Origin: an uncultured virus (IMG/VR IMGVR_UViG_3300046328_001173)
Taxonomy: Duplodnaviria; Heunggongvirae; Uroviricota; Caudoviricetes
Reading direction: 5' to 3' (one strand)
IMG/VR virus record: IMGVR_UViG_3300046328_001173
DNA length: 64,000 bases
The translations under genes were made by a program, and so were the position numbers. This document shows positions 19,469 through 64,000 of this stretch, in pieces. Position 1 is the stretch's first letter, and each line of letters begins with the position of its first letter. The notes beneath the pieces are model-generated. The model was not told where the DNA came from. It ran no database searches and was given only the letters and a program-made list of their open reading frames with translations.

Positions 19469-19610
19469 GTCTTGGTGGTGGAATTGGTAGACATATTATC
19501 TGAAAAGATAAGCCTGATAAAGAAAACAAAACTCTGGTAAAGTTTATAATCTTTATTACTTAATACCAATTAAGTAAAAGGGTGTGCAGGTTTAATTTCT
19601 GTTCGAAACA
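19469..19610 (+). ncRNA. Degenerate tRNA-Leu-like RNA with non-canonical anticodon arm and very large variable region
   Basis: GTGGTGGAATTGGTAGACA D-arm; TTATCT-GAAA-AGATAA; branched ~70-nt insert; GCAGG-TTTAATT-TCTGT; TCGAAAC-A-CAA. Confidence 0.7.
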
Positions 19611-19885
19611 CAAATTTTAATTACTTTCTAATGAAAAAATATTTCAATGTTCAAATCCAAATTCTTTGTAGTGTAATTCTATCTGTAATAATTATTACAG
19701 TAGTAAACTGCATTGCAATCACAAGAATCTCTATTCAATTGATAATTTCTCTGGTTTTAGTTACTGGTTTAGTAGTTAAAATATGGTGGGAAACTTCTTT
19801 GAATGATGAGTTGGAGTAAAAATTTAATTTTAAAAGCAATTTTAATAGTATTTAAAATTAATTTCGCCATTAAACAAAAACTAAT

Positions 19886-20317
19886 ATGGATATCAAAAAT
19901 TTAAAAGTATCTGAATTAAAAGAAATTTTAATTGAAGAGGGTATAGATTTCCCAAGTAATGCTAAAAAAGCTGCTTTAATAGAAATCGTAAAAAAAGTTT
20001 TTAGTCCAATTATAGGTTACATTAATCCAAAAAAAGTAAAAAAAGTTGGTTATGTAGAATATATCGGTGTAGAACCTTTTGGTTGCCCTTGTATATATTT
20101 AGAAGGGTTAGAAATTAATATTCAAGACCTTGAAACTCAATTTAACACTAAATTTGAGAGAGGTACTTTGTTTATAACTAATCGTAACAGTATTTACAAA
20201 TACGAAGAAAAATTTTATTCTTTATCTATGATAGATTTTGTAGATGGAAATACGATTGGTTTTCAATATCAAAAAGGTTTTAATAGAAGTAAATTAAGTG
20301 AGTATTTAGTAAAATAA
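19886..20317 (+). CDS. HeH/LEM (Rho_N-like) domain protein
   Basis: LKVSELKEIL...GI.FPSNAKKAALI N-terminus. Confidence 0.7.
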   Translation: MDIKNLKVSELKEILIEEGIDFPSNAKKAALIEIVKKVFSPIIGYINPKKVKKVGYVEYIGVEPFGCPCIYLEGLEINIQDLETQFNTKFERGTLFITNRNSIYKYEEKFYSLSMIDFVDGNTIGFQYQKGFNRSKLSEYLVK

Positions 20318-20380
20318 ATACTTCAAAGGTTATTTGTTTTACCTTAAATTGAACAACTCAAAATCAAAATTTCAATTTCA

Positions 20381-20728
20381 ATGAAAAACTATCTCATTTT
20401 TCTAGTATTTACAACATTAGTTTGTGGAACTAGCTTAGCTTGTATCGAATCATTTAAATTTAGTGTGATTGAGGCTATTGGCTTCTCAACTATGTTTGGT
20501 ACAATGCTAATTGTAATCGTATTTATGATAGAATCTGCCAATGTAGAAGATACCAGACACATTATCTTTGGATTGATAGCTAGTTTTACATTCTTATACC
20601 CATTCTTAGTGTTGGTATTAAGTTTAATAGTCAATCTTAATCAAGCTGCATTACTTGGATTTGTAGGTTATGTTGCATTGTTAGGTTTTGTATTGAGTCT
20701 TGGGTTTTTTATAACCAGGATTAGATAG
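20381..20728 (+). CDS. Multi-pass membrane protein
   Basis: About four hydrophobic segments. Confidence 0.75.
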   Translation: MKNYLIFLVFTTLVCGTSLACIESFKFSVIEAIGFSTMFGTMLIVIVFMIESANVEDTRHIIFGLIASFTFLYPFLVLVLSLIVNLNQAALLGFVGYVALLGFVLSLGFFITRIR

Positions 20729-22131: not shown

Positions 22132-22184
22132 TAAAAGTTATAACTTGTACTTGTAAACAAGTAAACTTCCTAAACTAAAATAAA

Positions 22185-23729: not shown

Positions 23730-23784
23730 AAATTTGAATATCTAACCCTTAAAAAATCAATTCTAACCTTTAAACTTTAATACT

Positions 23785-24799: not shown

Positions 24800-24872
24800 G
24801 GAAATGTAGCTTAATCGGTAGAATATTATGCTTATAACATAAAGGTACTGAGATCGTAACCCAGCATTTCCA
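24800..24872 (+). tRNA. tRNA with TAT anticodon (Ile-UAU, or decayed Met/Ile-CAU); arms carry mismatches
   Basis: GGAAATG/CATTTCC; TTATG-CTTATAA-CATAA; CTGAG-ATCGTAA-CCCAG; ends A-CAA. Confidence 0.75.
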
Positions 24873-24903
24873 CAATAAAGTCATTTAAATAAATTTTTAC
24901 CCA

Positions 24904-26303
24904 ATGAATACTCAAAAAATGGAATTAAAAGCTTACATTTTTAATAAAAAAATTCAATTTGGAGTTGATAGTTCAATATACTTAGCTGAATCTTTAGAAC
25001 AAGCTATTGCTATATTTGAATTGGACAATGAAGTAGTTTACAAAGGAGTTAAAAAACTTCGTGGTTATGTTGGTAATGAATTTTATGATTATGAATTTTA
25101 TGATTATGAATTTGAAGATACTTGTGAAGTTCTTACAGACAAAAACACTTATTATTCTATTGATGAAAAGGAACTTATAAAAGGTTTTCTAAATCAATCG
25201 TCTTATTTAGAATAATTGATAACAAGGTTATACTTTCTACCTATTTTAAAAGAGAGTGTTTAAATAATTTTCTAAATATGAAAATCAAGCCAATATTGTT
25301 AGCTCATTTTAAACAAAATGGTTTAACTGTTTATCGTTCTGCTAAAAAAGTTCTTTTAGAAAAAAATGATCAAAATGACGTAGACCCAACAATTGGGACA
25401 ATTATTTTTGTTAAAATGCCTGGATTTAGAGTAAAAGCTTTCATTGATGGGAAAATTGCCAGTGTGTTACTCGTAGAATTTAGTAGATTTTCTGATCATA
25501 TTTCTAATCCAGAAGAAGCTTTGAAACTTGTAGGTCTTGATGATAAAGCAATAGAGAAAATAAACTCTTGGAAAAGAAGTCTTGCTTGGAAAAAAGGCGG
25601 ACCAATTGAAAAAGATTGGAATTTCACAGTAGAAGCCTACGAATACTCTGATTTTTCTTGGGAAAATTGTACAGTAGAAGTTTCTATTCCAGGTCAACAT
25701 ATTTTTGATGTAGAAATAAATTTAGAGGATTCTTCTATTATTGCTACAATAACTTTCAAAGACGCCGAAGGTTATATACAAAACATTGAACAAGAGTTAA
25801 ATTATTAAATTCTTCAATACTTTTTCAGTTAAACCAATTTGTCTTATGTTAAAATATCCGCCACAGATTCCTTATAATGAAGCTGAAGCAGACAAATTAC
25901 ACGAATAACTTGTTCTTAATATTCAAGACACTATTTGTAAAAAAGTAGAAACTTGGAAATCAGAAAGCACAAAAAATATTGAATTATTGACTGCTGCAGA
26001 AATATATTGGTTAGTTAAATATTTGAAAACTCGCACACAATTTTTTACGAAATAAAAATCAATAATATGGCTTTAAAATATGTAGAAATTTATAATTGTC
26101 TTAATGATGATTTAAAAACTACAACACCTCAAATTGAACTAATAATTCCAAATGTTTTGGGTAGATTACATAAAGTAATCGCAAATTTTGACGGTGAAAA
26201 ATTTATTGTTGTCAAAAACAATCCAAATTATCGCAAAAAGATAAGACTTCACGCAGATAGACTTGGATTAGTTCAAAGAGGAAATCATTTTTACTATAAA
26301 TAG
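24904..26303 (+). other. Hypothetical CDSs (24904, 25278, ~25846, 26067)
   Basis: ORF track plus one unlisted ORF. Confidence 0.75.
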
Positions 26304-26385
26304 AAGTCAATTTTTTTTAAAAACTTTCCACAGTGTATGAGTAATATAAGACACTGTAAATTCCACTTTTTAAACTTCTCAAAAG

Positions 26386-29377: not shown

Positions 29378-29396
29378 ACTTTAAAATATATCCACC

Positions 29397-31393: not shown

Positions 31394-31825
31394 ATGACAT
31401 CGTTGTAGAAATTTGTCACAAAAAGAAAAGTTTTGTGCACAAACATTGACAGATATAAAATTTTTAGAGAAGGACCAAAATTAAAAATTTCAGAATTTGG
31501 CGATTTTTTGAAATACGTATATATTTTTCACAAGAAAAACTTAGTAGGAAATTTAGTTAAAACAGTAAGGAAGTTAACTAAAATTCAAATATTTCAATAT
31601 AATTCATCAAATTACACACTTTGTGATATTAAAATAACTAACAGTGGACAATTTGACGATTTTAAACAATATGGTCAAACACAATTTAGATTATTTTTTT
31701 TAGACTTAGAATATCTTTTTAATATTGATTTGAGTTTATTTGAACAATTTATAAATCAAGATTATTATGATTTCGAATTTACAGAGTATAAGTTGTTAGA
31801 TAAAATCAGAGTAAAACCTTTTTAA
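31394..31825 (+). pseudogene. Hypothetical gene with early in-frame TAG
   Basis: ATG 31394, TAG 31406, in frame with the 31433 ORF. Confidence 0.55.
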
Positions 31826-31836
31826 ATTTTACAACA

Positions 31837-33175
31837 ATGAAAAACAATTTATAGTTAATAGCAGAAAAATTTCATTCTTTTAACATACAATCTTATTTTG
31901 TACGTGGTTTTGTTAGAGATGTATTATTGGGTATCAAATCAGACGATATTGATATTTGTCTTGTTGGAGCTACAAAAGAACAAGTAATGAAAGTATTACG
32001 TTCTTTTCCATTTCTATTATCTGTTGCAGAAGAAGTGGGAAATAATTTTCCTGTTTGGATTGCTGACATTGAAAGATTTGGTAAAATAGATTTTGCTCTT
32101 GCAAGAGGTGAAAAAAAAATTGGTATAACTCGTCAAGATTTTGAATGTACAACTGAGGCTATTACTATTGAAGAAGATCTTCTTAGAAGAGATTTGACTA
32201 TCAATAGTATAGCTAAAAATGTACTCACAGAAGAATTAATAGACCTTTTTAATGGTGTTCAACATCTTAAAAATAGGTTAGCTCATCCTACATCAGAAGC
32301 ATTTGCAAAAGATAGTTTAAGAGTACTAAAAGCAGCAAGATTTTGTAGTAGATTTGATTTGAAACCTTCTCAATCGTTAATAGATATATGCAGCAATTTA
32401 AAACCTACTGATATTTCTAATGAAAGAGTTGGAATGGAATTGTATAAAGCAATGAAACAAGCTATAAAACCTTCAATATTTTTTAATTTCTTACGTGAAG
32501 TGAATTGGTTAGGATATTTTTTAAAGAGCTTGAAGATTTAATTAAGATTCTTCAATCACCAATCTATCACCCTGAAGGAGATGCTTATACTCATACTATG
32601 CTTTCTATAGATGAAGCAACTGATTATTTTACTAGAATTGTGATGTTATGTCACGATTTAGGTAAAGCTGTAAATACTACTATTTCTGAAGACGGTTTTA
32701 TACGATCAATAGGTCACGAAGTTGCTAGTGTGCCTCTTTCACTAGAAATGATGAAAAGAATACATTTATTGGATTATAAGTTTCAAGAACAAGTATCTTT
32801 GTTGGTAAAACTTCACATGATTCACACACAGAATATTTCAGAAAAAATAGTAAGAAAAACTTTACGTCAATTGTTGAATAAAGGTCTATTTTATGAAAAT
32901 TTAGTTGAAGTTTGTCGTTGTGATGTATCAGGTAGAACACCTTTACTTAAACATACTCCTGATATAGGACAAGTTAGAGCAAAAGAATTGTTAGAACAAG
33001 GTTTAATGGTTCCAATAGTTACAGGTAACCTTTTAGTCTCATTAGGTATGAAACCAAGTAAACAAATGGAAGATTTTATTAAAAAGCACTAGAATTTCAA
33101 GATAGGGGTATACTAAATTCTAGTAACTGGAAAGCTGTTATGAAAGGTGCTGGTTTTGTTATTCAATCATTTTAA
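31837..33175 (+). pseudogene. cca: tRNA nucleotidyltransferase (CCA-adding, class II) with HD domain, disrupted
   Basis: VRD.LLG...DDID, DFALAR.E, EEDL.RRDLTIN, HPEGD..TH, CHDLGK; TAG at 31852, frameshifts in T-run ~32520 and A-run ~33083. Confidence 0.9.
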
Positions 33176-33186
33176 AAACTAAAAAA

Positions 33187-33957
33187 ATGGAAAATCAATT
33201 TAAAGTAGTTTTAAGACCTACTGAAAAACCAAGTCAATTGTATAAAGACTCTCAAGGTAAGTTACAATTTGGAGTTAATATTCAAAGAACTTCACCAGAC
33301 ATCTCTCAAGACTTGCATATAGTAGATACAACACTTCCAATAAAAGGTTGGGCAATTCCTATAAATCAAAATGATGGAAGAATTATATGTTATCAAGGTA
33401 TTTGTTCAACAAGTCTTGATAAACTTCTTATTCCTTCTGAAACTTTTTTAAAATCTTATTGTGAAAACCCAGAAATGGAAATTACAGAAGGTTGTTGGTT
33501 TGAAGCAAATTCTGACAAATGGATTAACAGTATCACTATTTCAGAGTTCTTTAACAAGACTTTTACTTGGAATGATTTATCTCAAGTAAATATTCTTACA
33601 GGACTCAACGGAACAGGTAAAACAACTGTGCTAGATCGTGTTTGGTCGCATAAATACTTTGCTTCAACAGTAAAGATATCAGGTAATTTAGGTAAGATTG
33701 ATTATTTGAATACTAAAAGAACTATTTCTAATGGTTTAGAAGCATTAGATAGTATATTTAACGCAGCTAAATCTTGTGATATATTGTTAATTGACGATAC
33801 AGAGAAAAATCTTGATTTATTGACTCAAAGGACACTTATTTCACAAATAGTAAAAATTAATTCTAATATTCAGTTGTTTATTACAACTCACTCACCTAGC
33901 ACATATTTAGAAAATTACATAGGTAATAGGTTTGTAATAGGTGAGTTGATTTCATAG
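33187..33957 (+). CDS. ABC-type AAA ATPase fused to the LPT..S family N-domain
   Basis: GLNGTGKT, LLIDD.E..L, QLFITTHSP. Confidence 0.75.
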   Translation: MENQFKVVLRPTEKPSQLYKDSQGKLQFGVNIQRTSPDISQDLHIVDTTLPIKGWAIPINQNDGRIICYQGICSTSLDKLLIPSETFLKSYCENPEMEITEGCWFEANSDKWINSITISEFFNKTFTWNDLSQVNILTGLNGTGKTTVLDRVWSHKYFASTVKISGNLGKIDYLNTKRTISNGLEALDSIFNAAKSCDILLIDDTEKNLDLLTQRTLISQIVKINSNIQLFITTHSPSTYLENYIGNRFVIGELIS

Positions 33958-34056
33958 TATGATACCTAACAACTAATAACTAATTTGAGGTAGTTTGAGT
34001 CAGTTTAAACTAAATCTTAGTTGTTAGGTTTTTTTTCATTTTAATTAATAAACAAC

Positions 34057-34395
34057 ATAAAAGATTTCGGCAATTTTTATTGGAATGACAAATCTATTTA
34101 TTATGTAGAGAATAAGATTCTTTATTATAATAGATTTCAGAGAACTTACGAGTCCATAAAAAATTTACTTGATAATCTCTTGAAAACGAGTATTCGTGAA
34201 AAAAATATTAAAGCCAACACATTAGCTGAAATCATTTCTTATTACAAATCTCATAATCAATCTCGATATACTTTTGAAGGTATAGATTATACTCATAAAC
34301 CTTATGATTGGAATAATCGTAAAAATAGAGATTTGATTTCTTTTTATTTGTATTATCCTGAAGAAGATTGTTACAATAATTTTTTTAATAATTGA
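34057..34395 (+). pseudogene. Hypothetical gene with probable ATG>ATA start loss
   Basis: caacATA at 34057 opens a stop-free frame continuous with the 34180 ORF. Confidence 0.5.
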
Positions 34396-34851
34396 TGTTA
34401 TAATGTCTTAAAACAAATAAAACTATGACAGCAGAACAACAACACGTATTTAAATATCTCAAAGATTTTTTAACTAAAAATTACAAATATCTTTCTGAAT
34501 ATGCAAAAAGAGAGGAAATTACTAAAAAGCCTTATAAAAACAAAGAACAGTTAATAAAATTAATTGAATCTGATGTTTTTTATTTAGATTGGTATTTTAC
34601 AGAATGTTTACGTTGTCACGTAGATAAAAATATTCTAAAACAATTAGAAGTTTTTGAAGATCCTAATGAAGAATACACTGTTTATGAAATAAATAATAAA
34701 CTCATAAAAGTTTGGTTTGTTAATTTTGATGCTCAATATCAATTTGTTGAAACAAAAGATTTTGATAAAGAATTCTTAGAAGAAAGTTTACAATCTATTG
34801 TTGACAAACTAACAAAAGAAAATGAATTGTTAAAACTAAAATTATCTAAAT

Positions 34852-35286
34852 ATGAAAACAACTGAACAAAAATTGCTTTTGTTATTACAAATAGCTGCAA
34901 ATAATGGTTAGAAAGTCTCTAATACAACTTTATCTTTATGATTGAATTATCCTAATGATAAAGAATATACACCTTCTTTTACTAAAGATTTAAAATATTG
35001 TAAAGGTTGGGAATATCATTCTGTTGACAGTCTTGTTATTAATTGAAAACCTAATCAAGTTTCTTTTCTTGAATCTTTATGTAAAGCATTAGTAGATAAA
35101 GTAGAAATTTACAGAACTGAGTTTGAGAGTTATAAACTTTTGTTTGATTCTGGTAAAGAAGTTTGGATTAATTCCCCAAAAGATTTACATCCTAGTACAG
35201 TAAGAGAGTATTGGATTGATTTACCTTCTTCTAAAAGACTTAATTCATTATTTGAACTTTTTAAACTTTTAATAAATGAAAACTAA
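34852..35286 (+). pseudogene. MKT.E.K paralog with in-frame TAG and TGA
   Basis: Aligns to 35276 and 59058; TAG 34909, TGA 35044. Confidence 0.8.
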
Positions 35287-35641
35287 CGAACAAAAACTTT
35301 CTAGACTTTTGAGTCTTGCACGTAAAAATGGTTATAAAGGTTATAATTATTTTTTCTCTTCTCGTGAATATAAACCTAAAATTGATGTAAAAAAATGCGA
35401 AATTTCGTGGGAACAACCTAGTGGATATGATGATATATACATTATTATACCATTAAACGATGTTGTAACCAACTTTGAAGAAGATGAAGTATCATTTATT
35501 GAGGGTTTATGTAAAGCTTCTAAATTAGAAGATGTTATTAGCACACATCCTCAGTTTTATAGAACAATTTGGATAGAAAAACCAACTTCTCAACGTCTTT
35601 ATTGGTTGTTTGAAACATTTAAACATCTTTTAACAAAATAA
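35276..35641 (+). CDS. Hypothetical protein, MKT.E.K family
   Basis: ORF track; paralogy. Confidence 0.8.
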   Translation: MKTNEQKLSRLLSLARKNGYKGYNYFFSSREYKPKIDVKKCEISWEQPSGYDDIYIIIPLNDVVTNFEEDEVSFIEGLCKASKLEDVISTHPQFYRTIWIEKPTSQRLYWLFETFKHLLTK

Positions 35642-36733
35642 ATAATACCAAGAACTATTGAAGAGAAATCTTTGATAGTTCTTTTTTAATTTTAACTCAA
35701 ATAAAAATGGAAAATAGAAGAAAAGATATTGAAGCTTTGATTAATTTCAATGTAGAAGTTACACCTCTTCAAATATTGCTTATTATTAGTTATAAGATTT
35801 TAATTTATAAATATATTGCAATTAAAAGTGTTAGTACTTTTCATAAAGAAGCATTTATTGTAAAAGCTTCTATCTATACTCCAGCAGGTGTTTTACATAG
35901 AACTTGTTATGATAAAAGTACTTTTACTAGAGAAAGATCAACAGAACCTTATATTGTAGTTTAATCTGATTACTATGAAGAACAACATTAAACAAATAAT
36001 TTACGCTGTATATAAACATAATGATAAAAACTCTTTTATTTCTTACCATTTATCAAAAGATGTAGCACAGATAATAGTAGAAAAGCTTAACTCAATAGAA
36101 ATTGAGAAAGTTTTAACAATACGTAATCAAAATGAACAAATAGAAAAATTCTTGGTCTCTTATGAATACAAATTAGCAAATTATATCGAAAAAAGATATA
36201 AATCTACTTTATATAGATTGTTGAAGAAACATTCATTATTAGAGCTGAAAAACCAGTTTCCAGAACTTTATATTCAATATATAAAATATGGTAAATTGAA
36301 AGACAGATTAGTGAAATTGTTTAATGAAAAATTTGAAGTAGGTTATTATCTAGTGACAGATATAAGTAAAATTATTCCAGAATGGCTCTATTCGATAAAA
36401 GAAATTGAAGTTCAAGATTAATCCATTTTTAAATTTAACCCTTTTTATGAAATACAATAAATATAAAGTAAATCAAAACACAAGTGACGGTAAAAAACAT
36501 TTATTAGTTGTAATTGCTCTTTCAGAAGAACAAGCTAAAATGTTAGCTCCAGAAGATAATGAAAATCAATTTCTTGTTGAAGTAACTTTTGTTTGTTCTA
36601 CAGAAGAAAAAGAATGTAGAATAGTTGAAGCTCAATATTGTGTATAATTTTTTAGAAGTTGAAAATCTAATTTAACAGTTCAGGATAATCTAAAAATCCT
36701 AAATTTCAAATCATACATTTTTTCTCACACTAT

Positions 36734-36836
36734 CGTAGGAATATCAAACTATATTAGAATGTTCATTAAATAGAACAAACAAAGTAGCAAGGTGAATAAG
36801 TAGCAATACTTAGAGGTTCGAGTCCTTTTTCTACGA
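36734..36836 (+). ncRNA. tRNA-like RNA: acceptor + T-arm with rearranged interior
   Basis: CGTAGGA/TTCTACG-A-CAA; AGAGG-TTCGAGT-CCTTT; inner TGTTC/GAACA and AAGTA-GCAA-TACTT hairpins. Confidence 0.65.
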
Positions 36837-37035
36837 CAAAATTAATTTACTTTAAAAATCCTTCACAATAATATTTTAATATACTATACCCGTTGATTTG
36901 ACGGTTTTGTTATGTTGAAATATTATAGTATTTTCTTGATAATTTGTATCAATGAGATTAAAATAGTGTTTTAAATTTACTGATTTCAATCAAAAATAAA
37001 ATTAATCTTTAACCAAATCTCAATAATTTTAAATT

Positions 37036-37350
37036 ATGACAAACCTAATAAAACTACAAAGATAGTATTCTTCTCAATGTGACGGTGATTGGGAACATTC
37101 TTATGGTATTAAAATCGATACATTAAACAATTCAAGTTGGAGTATTATGATAGATTTAACTAATACTAAATATGAAAATCTAAAAATTAAATCTGTAGCT
37201 TATTTTAATAAAGAAGATGTTGAAAAAATTGACTGGTATGGTTATGCAATAGAAAATAATAAATTTATTGCTTGTGGAGATTCTAATAAACTAGATATGT
37301 TGATTGGAGTGTTCTTAAATATTGTTGAACCAAATAAATTAAAGTTTTAA
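37036..37350 (+). pseudogene. Imm53-family immunity protein, disrupted
   Basis: LQR*YSSQCDGDWEHSYGIKIDTLNNSSW..IDL; TAG 37063 at the conserved Trp. Confidence 0.8.
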
Positions 37351-37373
37351 AATCTATTTAACTCCTTTTTAAA

Positions 37374-37696
37374 ATGCCAAACAATAACTTTCCATTAAAA
37401 TCATTATCTGAATTAGAAAACAAACACTTTGGTCTTCCAGAAACCTCAGAAAGAATTGAATATGAGGAAGGTTATCAAAAAGAAGTTAAATCAAGTAAGT
37501 CTAACTTGAAATACAAAAAAAAGATTCAATTATTAAAACATCTTTTGGTAGTCTATCAATAGTAGCACCAATAGTTGAAGTGATTAATCAAACTGATACA
37601 GAAGTTACTCTAAAAGGAGAACAAATATTTGGTATCACAGGTATCACTACAATTTCATTAGAAAAGTTTAATGAAAATTATGAAGTTGTAAAATAA
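37374..37696 (+). pseudogene. Frameshifted hypothetical gene
   Basis: A second frame continues from ~37505 to TAA 37694-37696. Confidence 0.5.
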
Positions 37697-38236
37697 CAAT
37701 AAGTAATTTAATGTTTCATAAACAATTTAATATTTAACGGTATTAGGTTGTTTTTTGTGTTTTAAATCAAATCAATTATGAAAAAATATAGAATAAAAAC
37801 ACCTTTGTTTAGAATATTCATTGATGGTGTTGAAGATATTGTAAACGAATATACTTTTTTCAATTTGAAATTAATGGTAGCTAAAAAGATAATCAAACCT
37901 TTTAGTTTTGAAATAAAAAATGGTATACAAACTATCGAAGAAGATGGAAGACTACCTACTGATATTGAACCAATTGATTTAAATGGTAGAGAATCAATGA
38001 AATTAATATCACATTTTATTAGGCAGTTGTGGAAACTAGATATGGAGTAAAATAATGAGATAACACAATGGTTAGTGTAAGACTTTTATACAATTAGTTG
38101 GATAGAAGGCAAATTTTTTCAATATATTTATGCGCATAAAGATAAGTATGCAAAACATATAAGATTTACTGGCGATAAAGCTGACTATTGGCTGTTAAAT
38201 GAAATTTTAATTGATTCTTTTTATATAGATTGAAAA

Positions 38237-38569
38237 ATGTCACTTATTTCTAATATACCGATTAATTTTTCAGCTTCTTATTATAAACCAGAGTACATAG
38301 AAACTTTAACTGTTACTTTATTTGAAGGAACTATGTAGTATTCTATATTTTCAATTGATTTGTTTCCTGAATTACATCATTTAGCTTTTTTAGTACCTAA
38401 TTTAGAATTACTTACTTCTAATGCAATAGATGAAACAAGCTATCTTTATAAAGTAACTAAAACTCAAAAATCTATGTGGTTTAACAATGGTTGGAGAAGT
38501 ATTGATAAAAATTTTGATGATTTTATTGGACTAACTCCAGAAGAACGTTATCAAAAAATTATGAGATAA
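38237..38569 (+). pseudogene. Hypothetical gene with in-frame TAG
   Basis: ATG 38237, TAG 38336, same frame as the 38360 ORF. Confidence 0.6.
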
Positions 38570-38657
38570 AAATCTTCGTTTATTTAAAATTCTATTAGAC
38601 TTATTGACTTTGTTGATAAGTTTTCTTAATATTTTTAAACTTTAATTCAATAAAACT

Positions 38658-39257
38658 ACGAGAAAATATTTAGTTTAAACTGTTGTATCTGAAAGTGAAT
38701 ATGGAGACCACTGTACTGATGGTTTTCATATTCTTGGTGAAGTTTCTTTTGAGGATAATTCTATTCTTGAGAAACTAAATCAATATCCCTCTTATTTAGA
38801 AAAACATCCTGAATCAATAGGGCTGTGTAACTTATTTTATTTAAACGAAGATTATTACGACAAAAAACATTTACGTATAGATTCTTTCATAAAAAAACAC
38901 AAGAATCTTTTTTCTAAAGATGTTTTTGATTTTGCTGTGGATTGGTGGAATAAGATTAAACTTCTAAACAAATCTTATACATTTTCTTCTATTGTTGAAG
39001 GTTATTTAAAAGAAAGGGTAGTTTCACAATTTATAGAAACTATCTTAAGAAAAAAAGTAATGAAAGAAATAATAGGTTTTATTAGAAAGTACAATATTGT
39101 TACAAAGAGGTATTGGAATATTCGTAAAGCTATTCTAATAAAAAACTATCCTGCTTTTCAATATCCAGAAGTAGAATGTTTTATTAATACTTATGTTAAA
39201 ATCAATTCTGAAACTAAATTTGATTCTATGGAAGTAGATTTAAAATTGCTTTATTAG
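38658..39257 (+). pseudogene. Hypothetical gene with ACG start and early TAA
   Basis: Frame from 38658 (TAA 38676) is continuous with the 38937 ORF. Confidence 0.5.
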
Positions 39258-41730: not shown

Positions 41731-41797
41731 TACTTTCTGTAACATTTGATAGTACACAGTAATTTATTAATAATTCACCAAAAGAACTTCTTATGAT

Positions 41798-42790: not shown

Positions 42791-42811
42791 AACCAATATT
42801 AAATTATTTAT

Positions 42812-42934
42812 GTAGTAAATGTCGAGTTGGAACGGCAGGAACGGCTAAAGCGAAGGCAACACTATGCTAAGACTGGACGAATATTGGTCTGTTGCTATTC
42901 AATATTCTCGTGAGTTCGAGTCTCACTTACTACA
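42812..42934 (+). ncRNA. Type-II-tRNA-like RNA with the anticodon arm replaced by an insert
   Basis: GTAGTAA/TTACTAC-A; GTC-GAGTTGGAAC-GGC D-arm; GAATATTG/CAATATTC arm; GTGAG-TTCGAGT-CTCAC. Confidence 0.75.
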
Positions 42935-44223: not shown

Positions 44224-44622
44224 ATGGGAGCAGATGGCGGAATTATAATTTATAAATTTAAAGATGTGTGTGAAAAATGGGAAGAGGTAAAACAAAAATT
44301 ACACATATTATTTTCTACTGAAGTTAAAGAAGAAAAAGAAAGATACAATCATTTTACAAAAACTTATTGTCTCACAAAAGAAAAAAATGAATCGTATAAC
44401 CTTGAAAAAGCTAATAAAATTAAAGAATATGATATTCAAGATAAAACTTGTAAATAGTTTTGTACTTGGTTACATACATTAGAATCAAGTTGTGATTCAC
44501 CTTATTGCCTTGAAGATTATATTTTAATGGCTTATGGGGATAATATATGGCGCAAATTTGAAAATTTTGAAAATTGTTTTTTTAATGTTCTTAAATATGA
44601 ACAAATAGAAACTTGAACTTAA
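44224..44622 (+). pseudogene. Hypothetical gene with in-frame TAG and TGA
   Basis: Frame continues after TAG 44455 to ...EQIET*T* (TGA 44614). Confidence 0.65.
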
Positions 44623-44874
44623 TTTAAAACCCTTATTAAAATTATGGAAAAATTAATTGATTGGTCAATAAGATCTTTATCTAGTAGATTTGATTCTTGT
44701 GTAGTTGTTAAAAATGCATTAGGGGTACTTAACTATATGTCACAAGAGTTTTATAATACAGGTTTTACTAATAAAATATTGTTTAGAGGAACTGATGAAG
44801 AATGTAAAAAATTCTGTGAAGATTCTGAAAATAATATTATAAAAGAATAGTTCAAACACAAACTCTTTAATTCA

Positions 44875-45219
44875 ATGAATATAAAAACTCCTTATGGTTT
44901 AACTATTATTAATAGTTTGCCACTAACTGATTTAATAAACTATAAAAACCATAAAAGACTTCGTGTTTTCTTCCATAAAGGTTGTAGCTGTATTAAATGT
45001 GGTATAACTAGAACTCAAATTGGTGTTGGAGTAGATTTTGACGGTAATAAACACTTAGATATTTATACAGATAATTTTAAGATGATTAATATTGATCATA
45101 CTCTACCTAAATCAAGAGAAGGCAATAGTTCATTGGAAAATCTTGAACCAATGTGTCATGAGTGTAATAGTATTAAAAGAAATAAATTAGATGAAGATTG
45201 GGAAGACACTACTATCTAA
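44875..45219 (+). CDS. HNH endonuclease
   Basis: CxxC ... IDHTLPKS.EG......NLEPMCHECN..K. Confidence 0.85.
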   Translation: MNIKTPYGLTIINSLPLTDLINYKNHKRLRVFFHKGCSCIKCGITRTQIGVGVDFDGNKHLDIYTDNFKMINIDHTLPKSREGNSSLENLEPMCHECNSIKRNKLDEDWEDTTI

Positions 45220-45454
45220 TCTAAAAATTTATCCTCAATGGAAGGCTGTAGATTTATTTATCATTGTCTTGATATTGGTATTTCTATAATAGGTTTAGAA
45301 GTATATAACAAAGATGGAAAATACTTAGGTATTATCTCTGAGTTATGTGAAAATTTTAGACATAATAATAGTTTGTCTATTAAAGTACAAGACAATGATA
45401 CTTCTATATATTATGTTGGAAGTGTTTATGTTAAATTAAATTAACTAAATGATT

Positions 45455-45715
45455 ATGAAAACAATTAAACGAAGATTTCAACAATTTCCCATCTATTACA
45501 AAAATTCTTTGTTACCAGTTGGATTTTAAGGGGTTCTTTCTTTTGATAATTATGGTAGATGGACTATATTTGTTCACGAAACTCATTTTGCTACATCTAA
45601 GATAATAACCATGCCAGATGATTTAGATTATGGTAGATGTATTAAAGAAGCTTTTGAAGAATTGTCTGATTTTGTTTGGGATAACAATAAATTTGTAATT
45701 AAATTTTTAGAATAG
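45455..45715 (+). pseudogene. Hypothetical gene with in-frame TAA
   Basis: ATG 45455, TAA 45527, frame open to TAG 45713. Confidence 0.6.
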
Positions 45716-45736
45716 TAAAGTTAAACCAATACATTT

Positions 45737-46585
45737 ATGAGAAAAGAATTAATTCGTAACAATAGTTGGGATACGAATAGTTCAAGTTGCCATAGCATTA
45801 GTATCAGTTCTGATATGGAAGTGTTAGATACTATATATCCTGATGAAAATGGTGTTATTACAATTGAAGGAAGAGATTTTGGTAGATGGTTTGAAAGAAG
45901 TAATGATGTTAATATGAAACTTTCTTATGCTGTAACTTCTACTTTATATGATTTAAGTGAAGAAATATTAAAAGAAATTATTAAAGAACAAACAGGTTGT
46001 AATGAAGTTATTTTTAATGTTTCTGATGATTGGGATTCTCCATATTGGTCAAGTATTGATCACGAATCAGTTGAAATTTGTCCAAGAGAAAAAGAACAAT
46101 TAAGAAACTTCTTATTTAATAAAAACAGTTGGTTGTTCATTGCTCACGATGAAGGTACACCAGAACCTGGCTTTTATGATGTTTTACCTATTTATACAAT
46201 AAATGGTGTGATAGAACCTTTATTTAAGTATGAATTAATTATTCCTTTGATTAATAAATCTTTTAAATTTTTAGATTTACCTAATCAACAAGACTTTAAA
46301 AATTTAATTGATTCGCTTAAAGTACGTTACAACAAAACAAATAAAATTTGGCAAACTAATACTCATTCTTGGTCAAGTGATGAAGAATATTATGAACCAG
46401 AAGATTATTTAGAACAAGATTTAAATAATCGTTATATTCTTGTCTTTAACGATAAAAAATTAAAAGATTTGTGTTATCATAAATGGAAATGGGAGGAACG
46501 AAAGGAACGTAAAGAAGTTTTTTTAAAAGCTCGTCAAAATTCTAAATATTTTAAAAAATTGCCTTTTACAATAACAGAACTATGA
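45737..46585 (+). CDS. Phage protein with N-terminal TNSSS.HS motif
   Basis: IRNNSWDTNSSSCHSISI and later IDHES. Confidence 0.7.
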   Translation: MRKELIRNNSWDTNSSSCHSISISSDMEVLDTIYPDENGVITIEGRDFGRWFERSNDVNMKLSYAVTSTLYDLSEEILKEIIKEQTGCNEVIFNVSDDWDSPYWSSIDHESVEICPREKEQLRNFLFNKNSWLFIAHDEGTPEPGFYDVLPIYTINGVIEPLFKYELIIPLINKSFKFLDLPNQQDFKNLIDSLKVRYNKTNKIWQTNTHSWSSDEEYYEPEDYLEQDLNNRYILVFNDKKLKDLCYHKWKWEERKERKEVFLKARQNSKYFKKLPFTITEL

Positions 46586-47442
46586 AATACATTAACGGTA
46601 ATGCTGAAATAACATTACAAGAAAATGGTACTCGTATTATTGAGTATGAAGATGAATTAAAACTAGATTACCCTACAAATGTTGATATAAGAGTTTCAAC
46701 CTCTTGTTCTTTCGCTGATAATATCTGTAAAGCGTTTTGTTATGAATCAGCTTTGGTAAATGGTAAAGATTGTGATTATGAAGCTCTAAAACAAAAACTA
46801 ATTGGTTTACCGAAAGGTATTGAATTAGCTATTGGTTGTAATCATTTTACTGAAAATTTGTATCAATTTTTAGATTGGTGTAATCAACAAGAATACATTT
46901 GTAATTTAACTATTAATCAAGGTCACATTAATCGTGATTTTGAATTGATTGAAAAAGCTATTACAAATAATCTTGTAAAAGGTTTAGGTATATCTTATCG
47001 TAAGGAACTTAAATGGATTGGACCACAGTATATTCTTGATTATTCTAATACTATTTTTCACATCATTGTTGGCATAGATTCTTTTAATGATGTAATGTCT
47101 TTAAAAGACAAAGGTGTTAAGAAATTGCTTTGTTTAGGAGAAAAAAATGTAGGATTTAATCAAGGTAAAGTAAATTTACAGTCAATAAATCACAAAGAGT
47201 GGTATTGGTGGGTTGCAAAACTATTTAGTGAGTTTGAAGTTGTTTCTTTTGATAATTTAGCATTAGAACAACTTAATATAAAAAGATTCTTTAATGATAA
47301 AAATTGGGATATTTTTAATCAAGGAGAATATTCTTTTTATATTGATGCAGTAAATCAAACTTTTGCACCAAGTAGTAGAAGTAAAGACGTAACAAGTTGG
47401 AAAGATTTAAGTATTTCTGAATATTTTAAAAATAAACTATAA
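46582..47442 (+). CDS. Radical SAM protein (atypical CX6CX3C motif)
   Basis: VDIRVS..CSFADNICKAFCYESA; ELAIG; VVSFDNLALEQL; FYIDAV. Confidence 0.75.
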   Translation: MKYINGNAEITLQENGTRIIEYEDELKLDYPTNVDIRVSTSCSFADNICKAFCYESALVNGKDCDYEALKQKLIGLPKGIELAIGCNHFTENLYQFLDWCNQQEYICNLTINQGHINRDFELIEKAITNNLVKGLGISYRKELKWIGPQYILDYSNTIFHIIVGIDSFNDVMSLKDKGVKKLLCLGEKNVGFNQGKVNLQSINHKEWYWWVAKLFSEFEVVSFDNLALEQLNIKRFFNDKNWDIFNQGEYSFYIDAVNQTFAPSSRSKDVTSWKDLSISEYFKNKL

Positions 47443-48338
47443 ACTACATTATGAAATACAAAATTAAAATAAATTATTCTACTGGAAATAGTTTTGGTTT
47501 AAATAACACTTCTGATATTCTTGAATTAGATTTTGAAGATTTGAATGTAGCAAAAGCAAATCTTTTAAGAATAAAAGAACATTATGAGTTGTATAAATTC
47601 ATTGATAGCTACACTAACAGAAAAAAACTTTCAGAAGAAGATTTTATAAAAGAATGTTCAGCAAAAGATTGGTTTGTAAAAGGAAAGTACGATTCTGAAA
47701 TGTTTTATAATATTAAACTCTATACAGATACTAGAAAAGTCTTTCAATTATCTTGTTTTTGGATTGGGTTTTTTGAAAAGTTACATTTTATTGAAATTAT
47801 TCTCGATTCAGATGTATTGTGTTATGAATTTTAATTAAGGTTTAACTTATCGCAAATTTATTCAATAACTGTGACAATTCATTTTAATTTTTAATAACTA
47901 TGATAACACAAGAACAATTACAGATACGTTTAAAAGAATTAGAGACAAAAGAATCCAATTCAGAATTTGAATTTGGTCAAATATCTCTTTTGAAAAGTTT
48001 ACTAGAATCTATTAAATCTCTAAATAAAAATATTGAGGTTTGGAGTCCTGAAAAAATTAAATTAGGTAACAAACTAAGTAAATTAACTCGTCTTATTAGA
48101 AGAATTGAAAAACTACTGCCTGATTTAGTTAAAAATGTAGAAGGAGGTTCCGGCTGGATTTATGAAATGTTTTGGAGTGAGACACTGAAACCTCACATTT
48201 CTTATGGAGTTAAAATTCCTGATAGTTGTTATCGTAGAGAACCAGATTTTCCTTCAGATATTTGGATACGTGTTGAAATTAATTTCAATCGTTGGTTAAA
48301 ATTTAATCAAGAAATTTCTAAAATACTTAAACAAATTG

Positions 48339-49016: not shown

Positions 49017-50541
49017 TTTTTTTTTCATATTAAAAATCTTTCTTAAAATGAATCAGTTACAAAAATTTTGTGAAGCTTCTCTTAAAACTTTTAAAAATTC
49101 TTTTATTTTTGGTTTAGAAGCAAGAGAATCAGAAATACAAGCTATTTTAAAAGTTGTTGAATCCTTAATGTTATCTGATTTTCTTTGTAAAAAAGATTTA
49201 TTAAAAGCTAAAAGTGATTTAAAAAAGATTCAGAAAGAATATAAAACTTCTATTGCTTTTTTAAAAGAAAAAATAAAATATTTTGAATAAGACTTTATTA
49301 AAATGTAATTAAATAAAATAAAGAAGCTACGTTGATAAGTTGTAAAAAACCTTTAAAATAGTTAATATATGAGACCCGTAATTGAAAAGCAATCCTTCCT
49401 AATGATTCTGAAAAAAATCGAAAACAACATTCTTAGGTTAGCTTTATTTTATTTAATTTTTAATGCATTAAATCAATTGTACCTAATAAGTTTTTGGAAA
49501 TATGACAAAAGACGAATTAGTTCAAAAAGTTCAATACTTTGAACACAGTAATCCTAAACTGGATTAGTTATTTAATTACAGTGATCTTGGCACAGAGTAT
49601 TTTAAACATTTAACTTCCGAAAAAGCTGTTGAATTGTTTAAATATGACAAAATTGAAAATTTTAGTGATTCTAGAATTAAGTTTATAAATGAAGACATTG
49701 TTTTAGAATATGAGTTGGCTCAATTATAGAAAGAACACTTAGATAGCTATTTACTTGAAATGCCTGAATTGTTATATAAAAAAGGTGACGATATTTACTA
49801 TTATATCAAAGGTACAGAGTGGAAAAAAGGTAAACGTAGAACTACAAGTGTGGAATTATTTGCTAAAAATACAGCTAATAATACTATCAATAATATCATT
49901 GACTTATGGGTTAATAATGCTGTACTTGAGAAAAGTATTTGGAATACTGATTATCCTACTGAAGTTCCTTTAATTATTGACCTTCAAAAATGGGTTTATT
50001 ATAACTGTAAAGACATCTCTTTCACTTTCTTACCAGAAGGAGTTTTAGTTGAATTTAGACTTTATAAAGAAATTGATGACTTTATAAATGCTTTTTACAA
50101 GACTTTAGATAAATTTTCAATTTTTAAACACAAATAAAGAATAATAAAATGAAAAATTCATTAAAACTTTTGTTTCTATTTCAGTAGATTTAATATTTAA
50201 GTTAGATTTTGATAAAAACTCAATTCCAGTTGTTATTAAAACTAAAAATAAATTAAATGTAGTTCATAAATTGCTTATCAATTGGTTAGTAGATTGTAAA
50301 ATTCAATTGAGTTATTGGCAGTCTAAATCTTATAGTAAATTAAGACAAAGAATAATTAAATTCTATCAAAATTCTCTTACAGATGAAATAGTAAATTTAC
50401 AAAAAGAATATTATTCCAAATTAAATTGAGTTGTAAAAGACTAAAAAAATACAGTGTTAAATTAAATGTTTTTTATTTTAGAGGTTTGGTTTTATCAACT
50501 AAATTTCTTTTTTATAGAAAATCTAGTAAATTCAAAATACT

Positions 50542-58191: not shown

Positions 58192-58791
58192 ATGAAAACC
58201 ATAGAAGAAAAAAATATCTTAAAATCTACGCCTTTTGTAGCTAAATGGAAAGAAGAACAAAAATGCCGTGAAAAAGAACACATTAATTCTTTTCCTGAGT
58301 TACAACTAGATGTAGCTTATTGAAAGGACTATTTAAATAAACATAGTTGGATTGATTTCAGTGGATTTACAAGAGATATTATTGTAGATTATACAAAAAG
58401 CCTTCCTGCATTGTTGTCTTACGTAGAACATTTAAATATGCTAGGAGATTTTAGTGCTGCTGTAAGATTTATTGCAGGAGATTTGTTTACAGATGTTGTT
58501 TTAGAAGTAAATTATGAAGATTGTGGAGGACAAAAACTATTTAAGATACCTAAAACCTTTAAGAAAGTTGATGGTTGGTTTACTAATCCTGAAAATAATC
58601 TTGTAACAGTTTCTATAAATAAAAAAACTAATAGTGTTCAATTTACTATTGATGTAGACAAAGCTGGTGTTTTAGATGTTTATTTAAGACACAATGCTCT
58701 GCAATTCAGTGACTATTATAGTCTTAATTTGTTTCTATTGTATGTAGAATTTTTTAAAATGTTAAAAGCAGAAAAAAAACCAAAATTATAA
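58192..58791 (+). pseudogene. Hypothetical gene with a single in-frame TGA
   Basis: ATG 58192, TGA 58321, same frame as the 58411 ORF. Confidence 0.65.
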
Positions 58792-59501: not shown

Positions 59502-60770
59502 AACTTTAAAATCTTTAACTCTTAAAACTATTATGCACAGAGTTCCAGAATTCAGAAGATTCTTAAATATTTACTACACTAGAACAAATAAACTTGTTTT
59601 TTGTAGTGTAATACACTCATTTTCTTTTTCTAAAGTAGAAAAAATCTATTCTAAATTGACTTGGAAAATTGATTATCTCAAAGATACTGTGAAAGCAACT
59701 AACCAAAATTTTACTTTTGAAGTTGTTAAGATAGAAGAATTTGATTATATGGATATTGAAGATTCTTGTAAAGACTTGAAGATTCCTTATACTGTAGAAT
59801 ACAATCTAGAAGCAGTAAAGAAATATTGGAATACTAGAAAAGGAAAAAAAGAATTTGTTGAGCAATTAAAAAATCCTTCTCAACAAGTATCTTTGTTCTT
59901 TGATGATAGTGATTACATTATTTCTTTTGATGGTAAATGGTTAAAGCAATTAATTGAAGAAGAATCTTGAACTATGTCAGATATATATGGATTTAGTGAA
60001 AATTTTTCTTATATTTTTGAATATAATCCTCACGATATTTTTTATGTATTTTAATCCTTTAAACACAATATAATATGATTTGGAAATTAAATATTCCATT
60101 AAAAGACAACAAATTAACTGAATATCACAAAAAAGAATTTAATAGGTATTCTGAATTACTATCTTACATTCAAGATATATTAACAGGTAAAATAATTGAT
60201 AATTTTCCTGTTCAAATAGAAGAATTTGTATTTAATGAAGAGTTTTATAATGTGTCAGAAGAAGAATATTTATTAAAATATTCAACAGAAGGTATTGATT
60301 ATTTTAATGATTATAAATTAAAACGAAATACAATATTTAATAACTTAATTGATAGTGTTTTCAACTCTTTTGTAACAAAATTAAAATGATAAGTTCTCTT
60401 GGTGATATTGAAGATATGCTAAATCAGGGTAAATATCCTGTTTTTCATCCTAAATTAGATCCAATAGACTGTACTTTATGTTGTCTTCCAACGAAAGAGT
60501 TTTTATTACAATGTACTCATTATATTATAATAGAAAGAATCTACTGTGATTGGGCTATTGTTAGATTTGCTACTCATTCTAGTTACAAAGGAAAAAATAT
60601 TCTTGTTGAAGTCGATCAATTTGTTCCAGAAGACTTAGATTTCTTTGTTAGAAAGAATGAAAAACTATTTAATTTCTATTCTCCAAAAGAGATGAATTTA
60701 ATGTTATTAGATACTTGTATGAGTTTTATATCTTATAAAGGATACTTTAAATATTTAAAATAAAAACTCA

Positions 60771-61806
60771 ATGAAAACACCAGAACAAATATCTCAATGG
60801 GGGGTTAAACAACTTCATTAACAAGTATCATTTAAGAACTAATACTAACAAAGAATTGATTTGTTTGTGTTATGACCAAATTGATACACCTAAAAATGAC
60901 ATTAGTAATGAGTGTCGTAGATTAGTTTTAAATAAAGAGACATTGGAAGTAGTTTCTTATCCTTTTTATAGGTTTAGTGATTATACCCCTAAACAACATA
61001 AACTAGACTTTGATAAAGGTTTATTTTATGAGAAAATAGCTGGTTCGTTGTGTACTTTGCATTTCTATGACAATAAATGGAATATTTCTACAAAAGATAC
61101 ACCAATGGGAGAAGATAAAGTGGAGAAAAATAATGAACAAACATTCTCTGAATATTTCTTTAAAGTGTTGAATAAAACAACAAATTTAAAAGCACTAAAT
61201 ACTAACTTCTTTTACATCACAGAGTTTAAATTCCCTAGTGGTACTCATCATTTGATACCTAATACTGATTCTTCTATTAATCTTATTGGGTTAAGAGATA
61301 AAAAAACACTAGAAGAATTGCCTCACAATATGTTGAATAATGATTTTAATGTATTACAAGGTTTAAAATTCAAAGAGGGTAAAGAATTGTTTGATTACAT
61401 TAACAATTTAGACCCAATAGTTTCAGAAGGTTTAGTTTATGTTAATAGAGATAAAGTAACTAATGGTAACTATCAAAGATTTAAGATTAAACCCCCTCAA
61501 TTTGAATTGATTTTTAGTTTAAAAACAGTCGTTCAGTCAGATATTACTAAAGAAAGAGAAAGAAAAAGATTGAATACTAAGTGGTTGAAAGAACTTTGTC
61601 AATATAATAAACACCGTACATTTTTAGAACTAAAAAAATATTCTTGTTTTAGAGAAGAAGTTGAAAATATTGATAAAAAAATTAAATTATTTGAAGATAC
61701 TTGTAATCAGTATTTTCATATAACAAATCCAAAAGAAACCTCTTTATTGAATGTTGAACAAGAAGTTAAAACTTGGTTGTTTTTACAGTTAAAACAAAAA
61801 ACTTAA
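60771..61806 (+). pseudogene. T4 Rnl1-like RNA ligase, frameshifted and motif-damaged
   Basis: ECR.LVL, EKIAGSL (motif I KxDG damaged), W.IST, EGLV, RFKIK; frameshift near 60815. Confidence 0.75.
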
Positions 61807-63291
61807 AATAAATTCTTAAATTTATAACAACTAAATTGTGGTTAATACACAGAGTAGAACAATGTTCTAGTGTACCTGTATTTGCATTTTTAAATGAAGA
61901 AGAGGCTTTAAATAAACTATATGATTTAAATAATATTAAAAAATCTAGTTTATATCAAGATATTGGTGAAAAAGCTTACTCTATTCTTGTAAAGTCTTAT
62001 CAATATATTTTACAAGAAGAACCTGTTTTAATTGAAGGTAAAGTCTTTCAATCGTTTCAAAATCTTTAATTTTAATTAATGAAGACTGCTGAATTAAACA
62101 ATTCTGAAAATACAAAAAAATATCTTGTTAGTAGAACTCTACAATTAGGTAATATTGTATTTAGAAGAGCTTTAGGGCATTATATAGCTCTATATAAAAG
62201 AGAAAATAGAAATTCTAGTAATTTTTATGGAGTTATATTATCTTCTGATGACTACTATAATTCTCAACAAGGTATTTTACTTAATAGTAAACTTACAAAA
62301 GAAAAGTCTTTAACTTATTTTACGGGGATTGTGTTAATTAAATCTTTTCCTGATAATAATTTTGTTTTTGGTCAATTGACTAACAAAGAATTAAAAACAA
62401 TTAAAGATTATGTAAAATTGTTTAAAACAAAAATATAATTTTATGCTTTATACTTCACTAAAACATATCAATAATTACTTTAAAAATCACTAAAAATGAA
62501 ACTATTTATTAGTAGTAAAACAGCTTATTGGGAAGTAAAAGAACCTTCTTTTAAAGATGTATTGTTCCCTAATGTTGGATTAAAATGTAGTTTACAAATA
62601 CCTCTAATTTTTAAAAGAGTAGAAAAAAATGAAATTATTTCTACATTTTTAATTGAAGGTGGTTGTAATTATTCTATTCCTGTTACAAATACTTAGTGTA
62701 AAATTGTAGATATTGTATTAGAGTGTGATAAAGAAGAATTATTTTTTTATACAACAGTTATATTAGAAGATATGAATATTCTTGTAATAAAAATAGATTC
62801 TTCTATTGTTGATTATTCAATTCTTAACTTCTATCAAGATTATAATGAAGAAGACTTACAATTAACTAAACAATTAAACAAGTCTTCTAACAGTATTTAT
62901 TATTTTAAATTAAATAAAGACAACAATTCATTACATTTAAGTGAATACAATTGGATATCAAATATTTTTTTACTTAAAGATTTTTATCTTCGTAATAATT
63001 TTAAAAAAGTATTTGTTACTAGATGTGTAAATAAAATTAAGGGTGTTCTTTGTCTATTAATGAGAAAATCAATCTATTTTATTGAAGATATTGTGTATTG
63101 ACGTACAATGCATACATCTCATAGTTCTAAATTATCAGATATTGATGTATTAGGTTCACATATTAATCTTTATGAAAAATTTAGTAAAAGTTTATTGACT
63201 AATAATGAATATTAAAAAGGTTTCATTTTAATTAAATAAATTATTTATAAATTTTTTAAATCTTAAACATTAGACTTTAAACACTAAAATT

Positions 63292-64000
63292 ATGACACAA
63301 AGTCCATTTAGTTATATTGATACATTCAAAAAAGAACACGTAAGACTAATTCTTGAAAAAAATCATTATCAAAGTAAAGATGAAAAGGGTGCTAACGTCT
63401 ATGAACATCTTAATTTTTATCTTATTATTACTTATTCACCTACACATAAAATAGGTGGAACTAATACTTCTATTGTACAAAGTAGCAATGGATATTTATT
63501 TTAATCTCGTAATTTATTATTAATTGAAGGTACAAATACACCTGACCAGAATGGATTTAAAAAATATCGACAACCTCTTCTTTTTATTTGACAAAGTTAG
63601 AAATGAGTATCATTGTAATATAAACGATGAAATTATCATTTATGGAAAATGGTGTGATTCAGGTATTAAAAACAATCATTCAATTTCACAAGTTAAAACT
63701 AAACAATGGGTTATATTTGCTATTAAAATCAATACTAAATATGTAGATAATTTTGTTGAGTTAGCTGACGAAAAAAATAGTGTCTATAATGTTCTTAAAT
63801 GGGGAACTTTTAAAGTAATTATTGATTATAATCAATTTAACTTTAATTGTTAGAAAGACTCTAATTCAAATTTACCAAAAGAGTTACAAGATTTAACTAA
63901 TGAACACACTTTAAAATGTCCTGTATCTAAATTTTTTGGTATTGATGATCTTGGAGAAGGTTTAGTTCTTAAATCTGATACTTATATTAGTCACAGAAGT
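63292..64000 (+). pseudogene. Rnl2-family RNA ligase, disrupted, runs off the window end
   Basis: KIGGTN, F*SRN (TAA 63502), IYGKWCDSGI, CPVSKFFG..D.GEGLV; frameshift and TAG 63851. Confidence 0.7.

Follow-up and report, generated by a model that had tools for sequence, protein, structure and literature searches.

Here, we report on a 64,000-nucleotide stretch of DNA from an uncultured Caudoviricetes virus (IMG/VR record IMGVR_UViG_3300046328_001173), below called the window, in which stops, frameshifts and motif changes accumulate in the accessory genes of what, judged by its genes, is a very large AT-rich freshwater crAss-like giant phage, the window being its accessory (early, plus-strand) left arm. 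The lesions are real DNA. Our best reading is that the breaks fit ordinary mutation drift better than enzyme attack, recoding, a cryptic prophage or sequencing error: a subset of the accessory genes, as a rough estimate a quarter to a third of them, is probably in neutral decay under strong AT-ward mutation, with the phage core still under selection. A preliminary description of the window had offered base-calling error on modified DNA, a decaying integrated element or deaminase hypermutation as the cause; the first is refuted, the second fits poorly and the third is not needed.

The window (26% GC, coding almost entirely on the plus strand) encodes proteins that map to a 78,111-bp contig, and its positions 1-17087 are identical (100% over 17,087 bp) to positions 209394-226480 of another virus record, G001, which is linear, 226,480 bp long and 95% complete according to CheckV. 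From there through position 64,000 the window has no counterpart in G001. G001 encodes a Crass-type major capsid protein (PF23898, 79.6 bits vs a cut-off of 27), the Crass tail proteins muzzle (PF25731, 124 bits) and tail ring (PF25702, 43.9 bits), a family A polymerase (PolA), DnaB and ribonucleotide reductase, and the virus therefore appears to be a crAss-like giant phage, although the closest capsid is only 52% identical. Open reading frames (ORFs) of 3833, 2342 and 1446 amino acids (aa) occupy the position expected for the virion RNA polymerase block, with no Pfam RNA polymerase match. The non-redundant sequence seen amounts to at least 273 kb; were the contig of 78 kb and G001 the halves of a single linear genome, its full length would be about 290-305 kb.

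Lesion load in the accessory arm and the core

Internal stops were called with a detector blind to the stop type, in masked runs since a two-strand run gave antisense noise. Of 81 loci from related phages, 66 (1.25 Mb) served as controls, the other 15, shorter than 15 kb, being skipped. Eleven internal-like stops (6 TAG, 2 TGA, 3 TAA) were detected at 17,088-64,000 of the window and none at 1-17,087, which is not significant alone (p = 0.23). The first 60 kb of G001 hold eight (5 TAG, 1 TGA, 2 TAA), its 60-100 kb region two TAA, and its structural arm (L028-L033) one TAA with no internal TAG or TGA. The control loci gave 46 stops (21 TAA, 16 TGA, 9 TAG), from which 0.94 internal TAG/TGA are expected in 46.9 kb, compared with eight in the window (Poisson p = 7e-6). 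For the accessory arm of window and G001 together, 14 TAG/TGA in 107 kb stand against 2 in 523 kb (p = 1.4e-9) of G043, the nearest architectural relative, and G048, G049 and G050, which share the CCA gene. Separately, locus L082 has five internal TGA in 19 kb and is possibly a code-4 phage.

The replication and structural genes, with 246 TGG codons, have no internal TAG or TGA detected (Fisher p = 3.6e-5 vs the arm), the major capsid protein shows one G>A among 126 conserved columns, and the G043 orthologues of the broken genes, such as the CCA gene, are intact. What had been called pervasive damage thus affects only some of the accessory genes, and it extends past the window into the first 60 kb of G001, where AlaRS-like, cpYpsA SLOG, HAD-like and AAA_33 genes are broken; open neighbours abound in the arm, e.g., 439 aa at 40411 and 330 aa at 41798. 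Since the core is under purifying selection, the phage is functional, and the roughly 8% G>A in the dead genes must have accumulated gradually.

A sequencing or assembly artefact, including misread modified bases, is extremely unlikely to lie behind these lesions. The frameshifts do fall in homopolymer runs, and X2, the run whose contigs were compared (it holds 151-nt records, from which we infer short reads), may be the window's own source, the comparison ending at 47.5 kb of the 64 kb. However, the X2 contigs over 31,500-35,358, 35,362-38,148, 38,150-47,276 and 47,247-47,494 (depth 26-32) show 0 differences and 0 gaps against the window, both CCA frameshifts and the stops being covered, which refutes base-calling error as the cause; eight listed pieces of X3, from another study, are identical as well and bridge ATA 34057 and TAG 38336. 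Nine of ten proteins looked up occur, each on two contigs (seven truncated pieces and two intact neighbours), as does the truncated Rnl1 product, and one 33-aa piece of the ten was absent from the collection. An error of sequencing chemistry should, moreover, strike the core too. Two further runs, X4 and X5, carry short related pieces, two of which, among the matches listed, show a single gap where the CCA frameshifts lie; these matches mix organisms, and change counts from them were not used.

Mutation spectrum and competing explanations

The spectrum was taken from the AlaRS-like, CCA, Imm53 and Rnl1 genes (213 conserved codons, a small sample of genes picked as broken). The 19 deviations comprise G>A at 10/130 sites, C>T at 1/47, T>C at 1/108, A>G at 0/133, six transversions and one multi-step change. 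GC>AT transitions thus occur at 11/177 sites vs 1/241 for AT>GC (odds 16, p = 5e-4), which bears out the pseudogenisation with GC>AT transition excess described before; as a G>A/C>T damage type, however, it is only partly described, as G>C, A>C, G>T and T>G changes and indels are present too. The odds are close to the standing fourfold-site AT:GC of the intact core (17.9; 7.8 in G043), so that the spectrum is as expected of neutral sequence in this genome. In this small sample, neither clustering of the changes (p = 0.22-0.43) nor asymmetry between the strands (p = 0.29) reaches significance. Homologues place W at four stops (37063 in the window; L025:7390, 9112 and 18802), Q at one (63502), L at two and Y at one (a T>G type), four further stops having no clear homologue residue. 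At least four frameshifts are supported by homology, in T6, A5, G6 and A6 runs, and several genes bear stop, frameshift and motif change together. Fourfold-site GC is 12% at 1-32000 of the window and 5-6% elsewhere, and dense lesions start near that step.

Please note that the AlaRS-like codons at L025:9292-9301 were dropped because an insertion starts nearby, and keeping them adds two G>A and one T>G; that CCA P>L and G>S pass the threshold only when DNA homologues are used, the protein set giving E>K in their place; and that the homologue sets of the radical SAM gene, ORF 45737 and the EcoRI-type methylase were excluded as dominated by old divergence. No repeat family was usable to polarise changes. 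A methylase hotspot was considered and rejected, as inspection of the sequence flanking the stops showed no common motif and the dinucleotide odds resemble those of relatives. A proofreading-dead polymerase was rejected on reading the PolA exonuclease motifs, which we take to be canonical. The split PolA of G001 was also rejected as a lesion, i.e., the gap reads, by motifs that we presume typical, as a group I intron; this probable ORF-less intron lies in PolA motif B (L026 ~14170-14480; G001 ~74.2-74.5 kb) and has no Rfam match at the gathering score.

Phages use tRNA/RNA-repair functions against tRNA-cleaving defences, and the broken set covers most of the recognisable functions of this kind, a second Rnl2-type ligase, in G001, being open. 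In the mechanism that we propose, tRNA/RNA-repair and translation helpers would be among the genes released from selection, i.e., the CCA enzyme, Rnl1, one Rnl2 and tRNAs, together with the four broken G001 genes named above. The trigger was likely a host or lifestyle shift, in that a change of host, niche or lifestyle may have made counter-defence functions dispensable. The released genes would then decay by the phage's own AT-biased mutation and by replication slippage in homopolymer runs, and the dead genes may stay since packaging constrains genome length, or because deletions are rare. As a lead, absence of a phage uracil-DNA glycosylase (UDG) and dUTPase could raise C>T pressure. G043 encodes both, together with thymidylate synthase and a dNMP kinase; a family search found neither UDG nor dUTPase in G001, and a six-frame search of the window and G001 (14 kb of the contig lie outside) had no significant match to any of the four.

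Several points weigh against neutral decay as the explanation. TAG and TGA make up 14 of the 19 detected stops, compared with 47% under equal transition rates (p = 0.016), an excess over TAA that neutral decay leaves unexplained. In all 10 G>A changes, the next base is a purine (p = 0.064). Of the 12 records searched, only 2 have UDG, and 8 of the 10 from other phages lack it too, so that UDG loss alone explains little. No close intact sister genome turned up in blastn against GenBank phages, in protein scans of viral and metagenome contigs or in the DNA of 39 related virus records, for which reason there is no true polarised spectrum or dN/dS; cluster look-ups gave singletons only. The join of the window's contig to G001 was not seen, no record spanning the G001 start.

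The purine context and the coding-strand imbalance (G>A 10/130 vs C>T 1/47) would suit a hypermutation burst by a host DNA deaminase, or by depletion of the deoxynucleotide (dNTP) pool, followed by a bottleneck, and two to three transitions stand close together in several motifs (Imm53, Rnl2). APOBEC/AID-type hypermutation is known for TGG>TAG/TGA and a G>A excess, and our data share with it these stops and a G>A excess, whose position before purines falls short of significance in this small sample. We nevertheless consider such a burst improbable. Unlike in APOBEC/AID-type hypermutation, the changes are neither significantly clustered nor significantly strand-biased; the frameshifts in runs and the G>C, A>C, G>T and T>G changes are not deaminase products, GC>AT accounting for only 11 of the 19 deviations; a single burst at about 8% G>A would wreck the core, yet the core is clean; and G001 has no PF00383 deaminase. 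T7 under a dCTP-deaminase defence likewise showed no C>T or G>A excess, according to 10.1101/2021.04.26.441389. As the bias equals the standing genome bias, and indels and transversions go with it, without significant clustering, deaminase hypermutation is not needed.

We also give little credence to the idea that some of these genes still work through partial read-through of TAG and TGA, be it by leaky stops, by incipient recoding or by A-to-I correction of the mRNA. It would accommodate the TAG/TGA excess; homologues place W, L or Y at such stops, and core genes are mostly TAA-terminated. However, none of the 246 core TGG is matched by a TAG or TGA, a search of the window and G001 gave no suppressor tRNA (again with 14 kb of the contig outside), genuine genes end in TAG or TGA (DnaB in TAG, a helicase in TGA), frameshifts and catalytic-motif changes occur in the same genes, and no single amino acid suits all stops.

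The lifestyle of the phage bears on the cause of decay. Multi-hit pseudogenes and damaged tRNAs, both present here, give the look of prophage decay, but a cryptic prophage in decay while integrated into its host's chromosome is very unlikely: the structural, packaging and replication genes are intact, G001 has no integrase, no host genes turned up in the 273 kb of non-redundant sequence (the far end of the window's contig lies outside), and the records break at a shared boundary, suggesting a genome end. A persistent plasmid-like or carrier-state phage, as proposed for crAssphage, or a non-integrated prophage, losing its lytic accessory genes to decay because it is transmitted vertically and in small populations, is unlikely, and it would be a particular cause for neutral decay rather than an exclusive rival to it. 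The sequence is identical among separate records and runs, and the candidate terminal repeat holds a weak RepL-like gene (window 13448; 20.2 bits vs a cut-off of 20.3, and 19.5 bits in another scan); for C. communis, PMC10983915 describes a phage-plasmid lifestyle, a repL gene and terminal repeats located at the strand switch. On the other hand, RepL stays under the family cut-off, G001 has no integrase, no partition or repressor family turned up in Pfam scans, and the virion genes are fully intact, so that particles must still matter.

Neutral decay can be carried further, to a free particle-forming giant phage in endosymbiont-style erosion, which lost uracil-repair and dNTP genes, became more AT-mutating and shed its tRNA/RNA-repair kit for counter-defence at about the same time, with the dead genes as packaging filler; in its boldest form, the TAG/TGA excess would mean that some stops are read through or corrected in the mRNA, on the way towards recoding. 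We offer this extension tentatively and consider it rather doubtful.

Catalogue of broken genes and genome layout

Features of the window with lesions or structural interest
Feature	Position	Strand	Evidence
Putative direct terminal repeat of 17,087 bp (left end of genome)	1..17087	+	G001 identity, G003 border
tRNA, shortened anticodon loop (probably damaged)	4369..4436	+	Rfam RF00005, 50.8 bits with loop deletion; ARAGORN anticodon '??'
tRNA-Leu-like RNA, long insert, mismatched acceptor and T arms	19469..19610	+	No Rfam match; fold z -0.53
tRNA (anticodon TAT)	24800..24872	+	Rfam 47.6 bits; two D-/T-stem pairs flagged non-standard
Small gene, internal TAA 25906	25846..26055	+	Blind stop detector; no homologue found
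CCA-adding enzyme pseudogene	31837..33175	+	TAG 31852, two frameshifts, GG>RG (G>C), P>L, R>K; X2-matched
ORF with ATA opening, possible lost start (weak)	34057..34395	+	Codon reading; sequence matched by X2, X3
Triple-hit pseudogene: TAG 34909, TGA 34939, TGA 35044	34852..35286	+	Paralogue of ORFs at 35276 and 59058
Imm53 pseudogene: W>TAG 37063, D>N, P>S, G>S	37036..37350	+	Pfam PF15580, 94 bits across break
Probable frameshift at A8 run 37515-37522	37374..37696	+	Codon model, three-frame translation, run
Two small genes: TAA 38048, TAA 38078; TAG 38336	38042..38569	+	Stop detector; 38336 bridged by identical X3 contig
Gene with internal TAG 44455	44224..44622	+	Stop detector; product look-up
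Gene with internal TAA 45527	45455..45715	+	Codon reading
Radical-SAM-type gene, frame open	46582..47442	+	H54Y at 98% conserved site
Gene with two internal TAG (49565, 49727)	49502..50137	+	Stop detector; product look-up
Gene with internal TGA 58321	58192..58791	+	Stop detector; product look-up
Rnl1-type RNA ligase pseudogene	60771..61806	+	phrog_562; frame break at G6 run 60799-60804; ECRG>ECRR; EKIDG>EKIAG (A>C)
ORF with ATA opening (weak)	61824..62069	+	By reading
Gene with internal TAG 62694	62496..63101	+	Stop detector; product look-up
Rnl2-type RNA ligase pseudogene, runs off window	63292..64000	+	Matches to phage RNA ligase 2; TAA 63502, TAG 63851

All codons named in the preliminary description are present, and its figure of about 15 damaged genes is fair, as a count by eye at 25-64 kb gives about 12 genes that are solidly broken and 9 for which the case is weaker. 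Its motif changes mostly stand against homologues. In the CCA gene, DPF>DLF and LRAARF>LKAARF depart from residues conserved in 79/89 and 88/89 homologues, respectively, GG (43/43) is changed by G>C, and the TAG at 31852 is a stop beyond those listed before; the frameshifts lie at a T6 run (32517-32522) and an A5 run (33081-33085), homologue tblastn giving the frame order 1>3>2. In Imm53, TAG 37063 replaces a W found in 73/73 homologues, and DNPGW>NNSSW alters D (82/84), P (80/84) and G (84/84). Both the ECRG and EKIDG motifs of Rnl1 are consensus in 9/9 homologues; its supposed STRG>STKD change falls away, STK being the state of the four nearest homologues. In Rnl2, GEWCG>GKWCD, Q at TAA 63502 and a frameshift at the A6 run 63559-63564 each follow from alignment to one homologue. 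The stops at 34909 and 35044, described as of Trp or Gln type, do not match W, since paralogues align Y/F and F/T there, with W at the remaining stop of that gene, 34939. TGA 44614 is only two codons ahead of a TAA and is a doubtful case. The ATA codons read as lost starts (34057, 61824) do exist, but are poor markers, because several control loci also give ATA starts, called 1-2 per 20 kb. The total deviation of the radical-SAM-type gene falls inside the range of its homologues. Beyond the window, the AlaRS-like gene has an insertion of ~130 codons relative to G043 (L025:9300-9720).

The first 19 kb, described as largely intact, are so for ORFs (0 internal stops) but probably not for the tRNA at 4369. 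The RNA at 19469 is tRNA-like by a consensus that we presume to apply. At 42812-42935, within the decaying arm, lies a tRNA-like RNA that pairs well (z -2.1); its T arm is intact, its middle is enlarged and it has no Rfam match. Upstream of a small ORF, positions 2362-2385 hold what we take to be a hammerhead-like core; it neither folds as a hammerhead nor has an Rfam match, and is possibly decayed.

Positions 1-17087 are probably a terminal repeat of a linear genome, as the record boundaries suggest: a separate record, G003, stops 4 bp into the window's first bases, i.e., at the same border. The ORFs of this segment are intact and its fourfold-site GC is higher. It also contains an AT-rich, repetitive stretch (1-640) and an OmpA-family membrane protein gene (10815-12065). 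In G001, giant minus-strand ORFs with helicase, ART-PolyVal and 2OG-Fe(II) domains (L028:4614-16002; polyvalent or ejected proteins) adjoin the 3833-aa ORF, and the ribonucleotide reductase large subunit (L027:8297-11104) has an insert of ~150 aa compared with G043, a possible intein.

Comparison with known systems

The nearest record, G043 (244.7 kb), has the same two-block layout on opposite strands and shares orthologues of the capsid (41%), the CCA enzyme (54%) and the AlaRS-like protein (54%). The present phage is larger (at least 273 kb seen), has 21-28% GC with half the fourfold-site GC, is without the UDG, dUTPase and ThyA of G043 as far as our searches found, and carries dozens of broken accessory genes, whereas G043 has almost none. 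G043 also carries ProRS, ArgRS-like and AlaRS-like genes and a chaperonin fragment (L318, L320).

To our knowledge, the prevailing view of phages whose lytic machinery is intact is that they are gene-dense and lose useless DNA by deletion. We found no published pseudogene-laden phage with an intact virion set, in a search that lacked most subscription papers and supplements, so that absence from print is unproven. A natural, clonal giant phage rich in pseudogenes would be a built-in map of dispensable and still-selected accessory genes, its broken genes would be a neutral record of the mutation spectrum, and it may help to test whether dead DNA is retained because of capsid size.

In-frame TAG and TGA are shared with recoded crAss-like phages, in which, according to PMC7886860, stop recoding occurs mostly in late genes and often with suppressor tRNAs; in the present phage, by contrast, the late genes are free of internal TAG/TGA, the window and G001 gave no suppressor tRNA, and the stops are accompanied by frameshifts. 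In-frame TAG/TGA scattered over a crAss-like contig are thus not necessarily a sign of recoding.

Multi-hit pseudogenes after an ecological shift and a GC>AT bias are typical of young endosymbionts and cryptic prophages. The accumulation of pseudogenes is in common with them (PMC9336565, PMC3056288). Unlike in those systems, the virion and replication set is intact here and decay is limited to accessory genes. Most likely, we are looking at a pseudogenisation under relaxed selection that is already familiar from endosymbionts and cryptic prophages, on a scale that is unusual.

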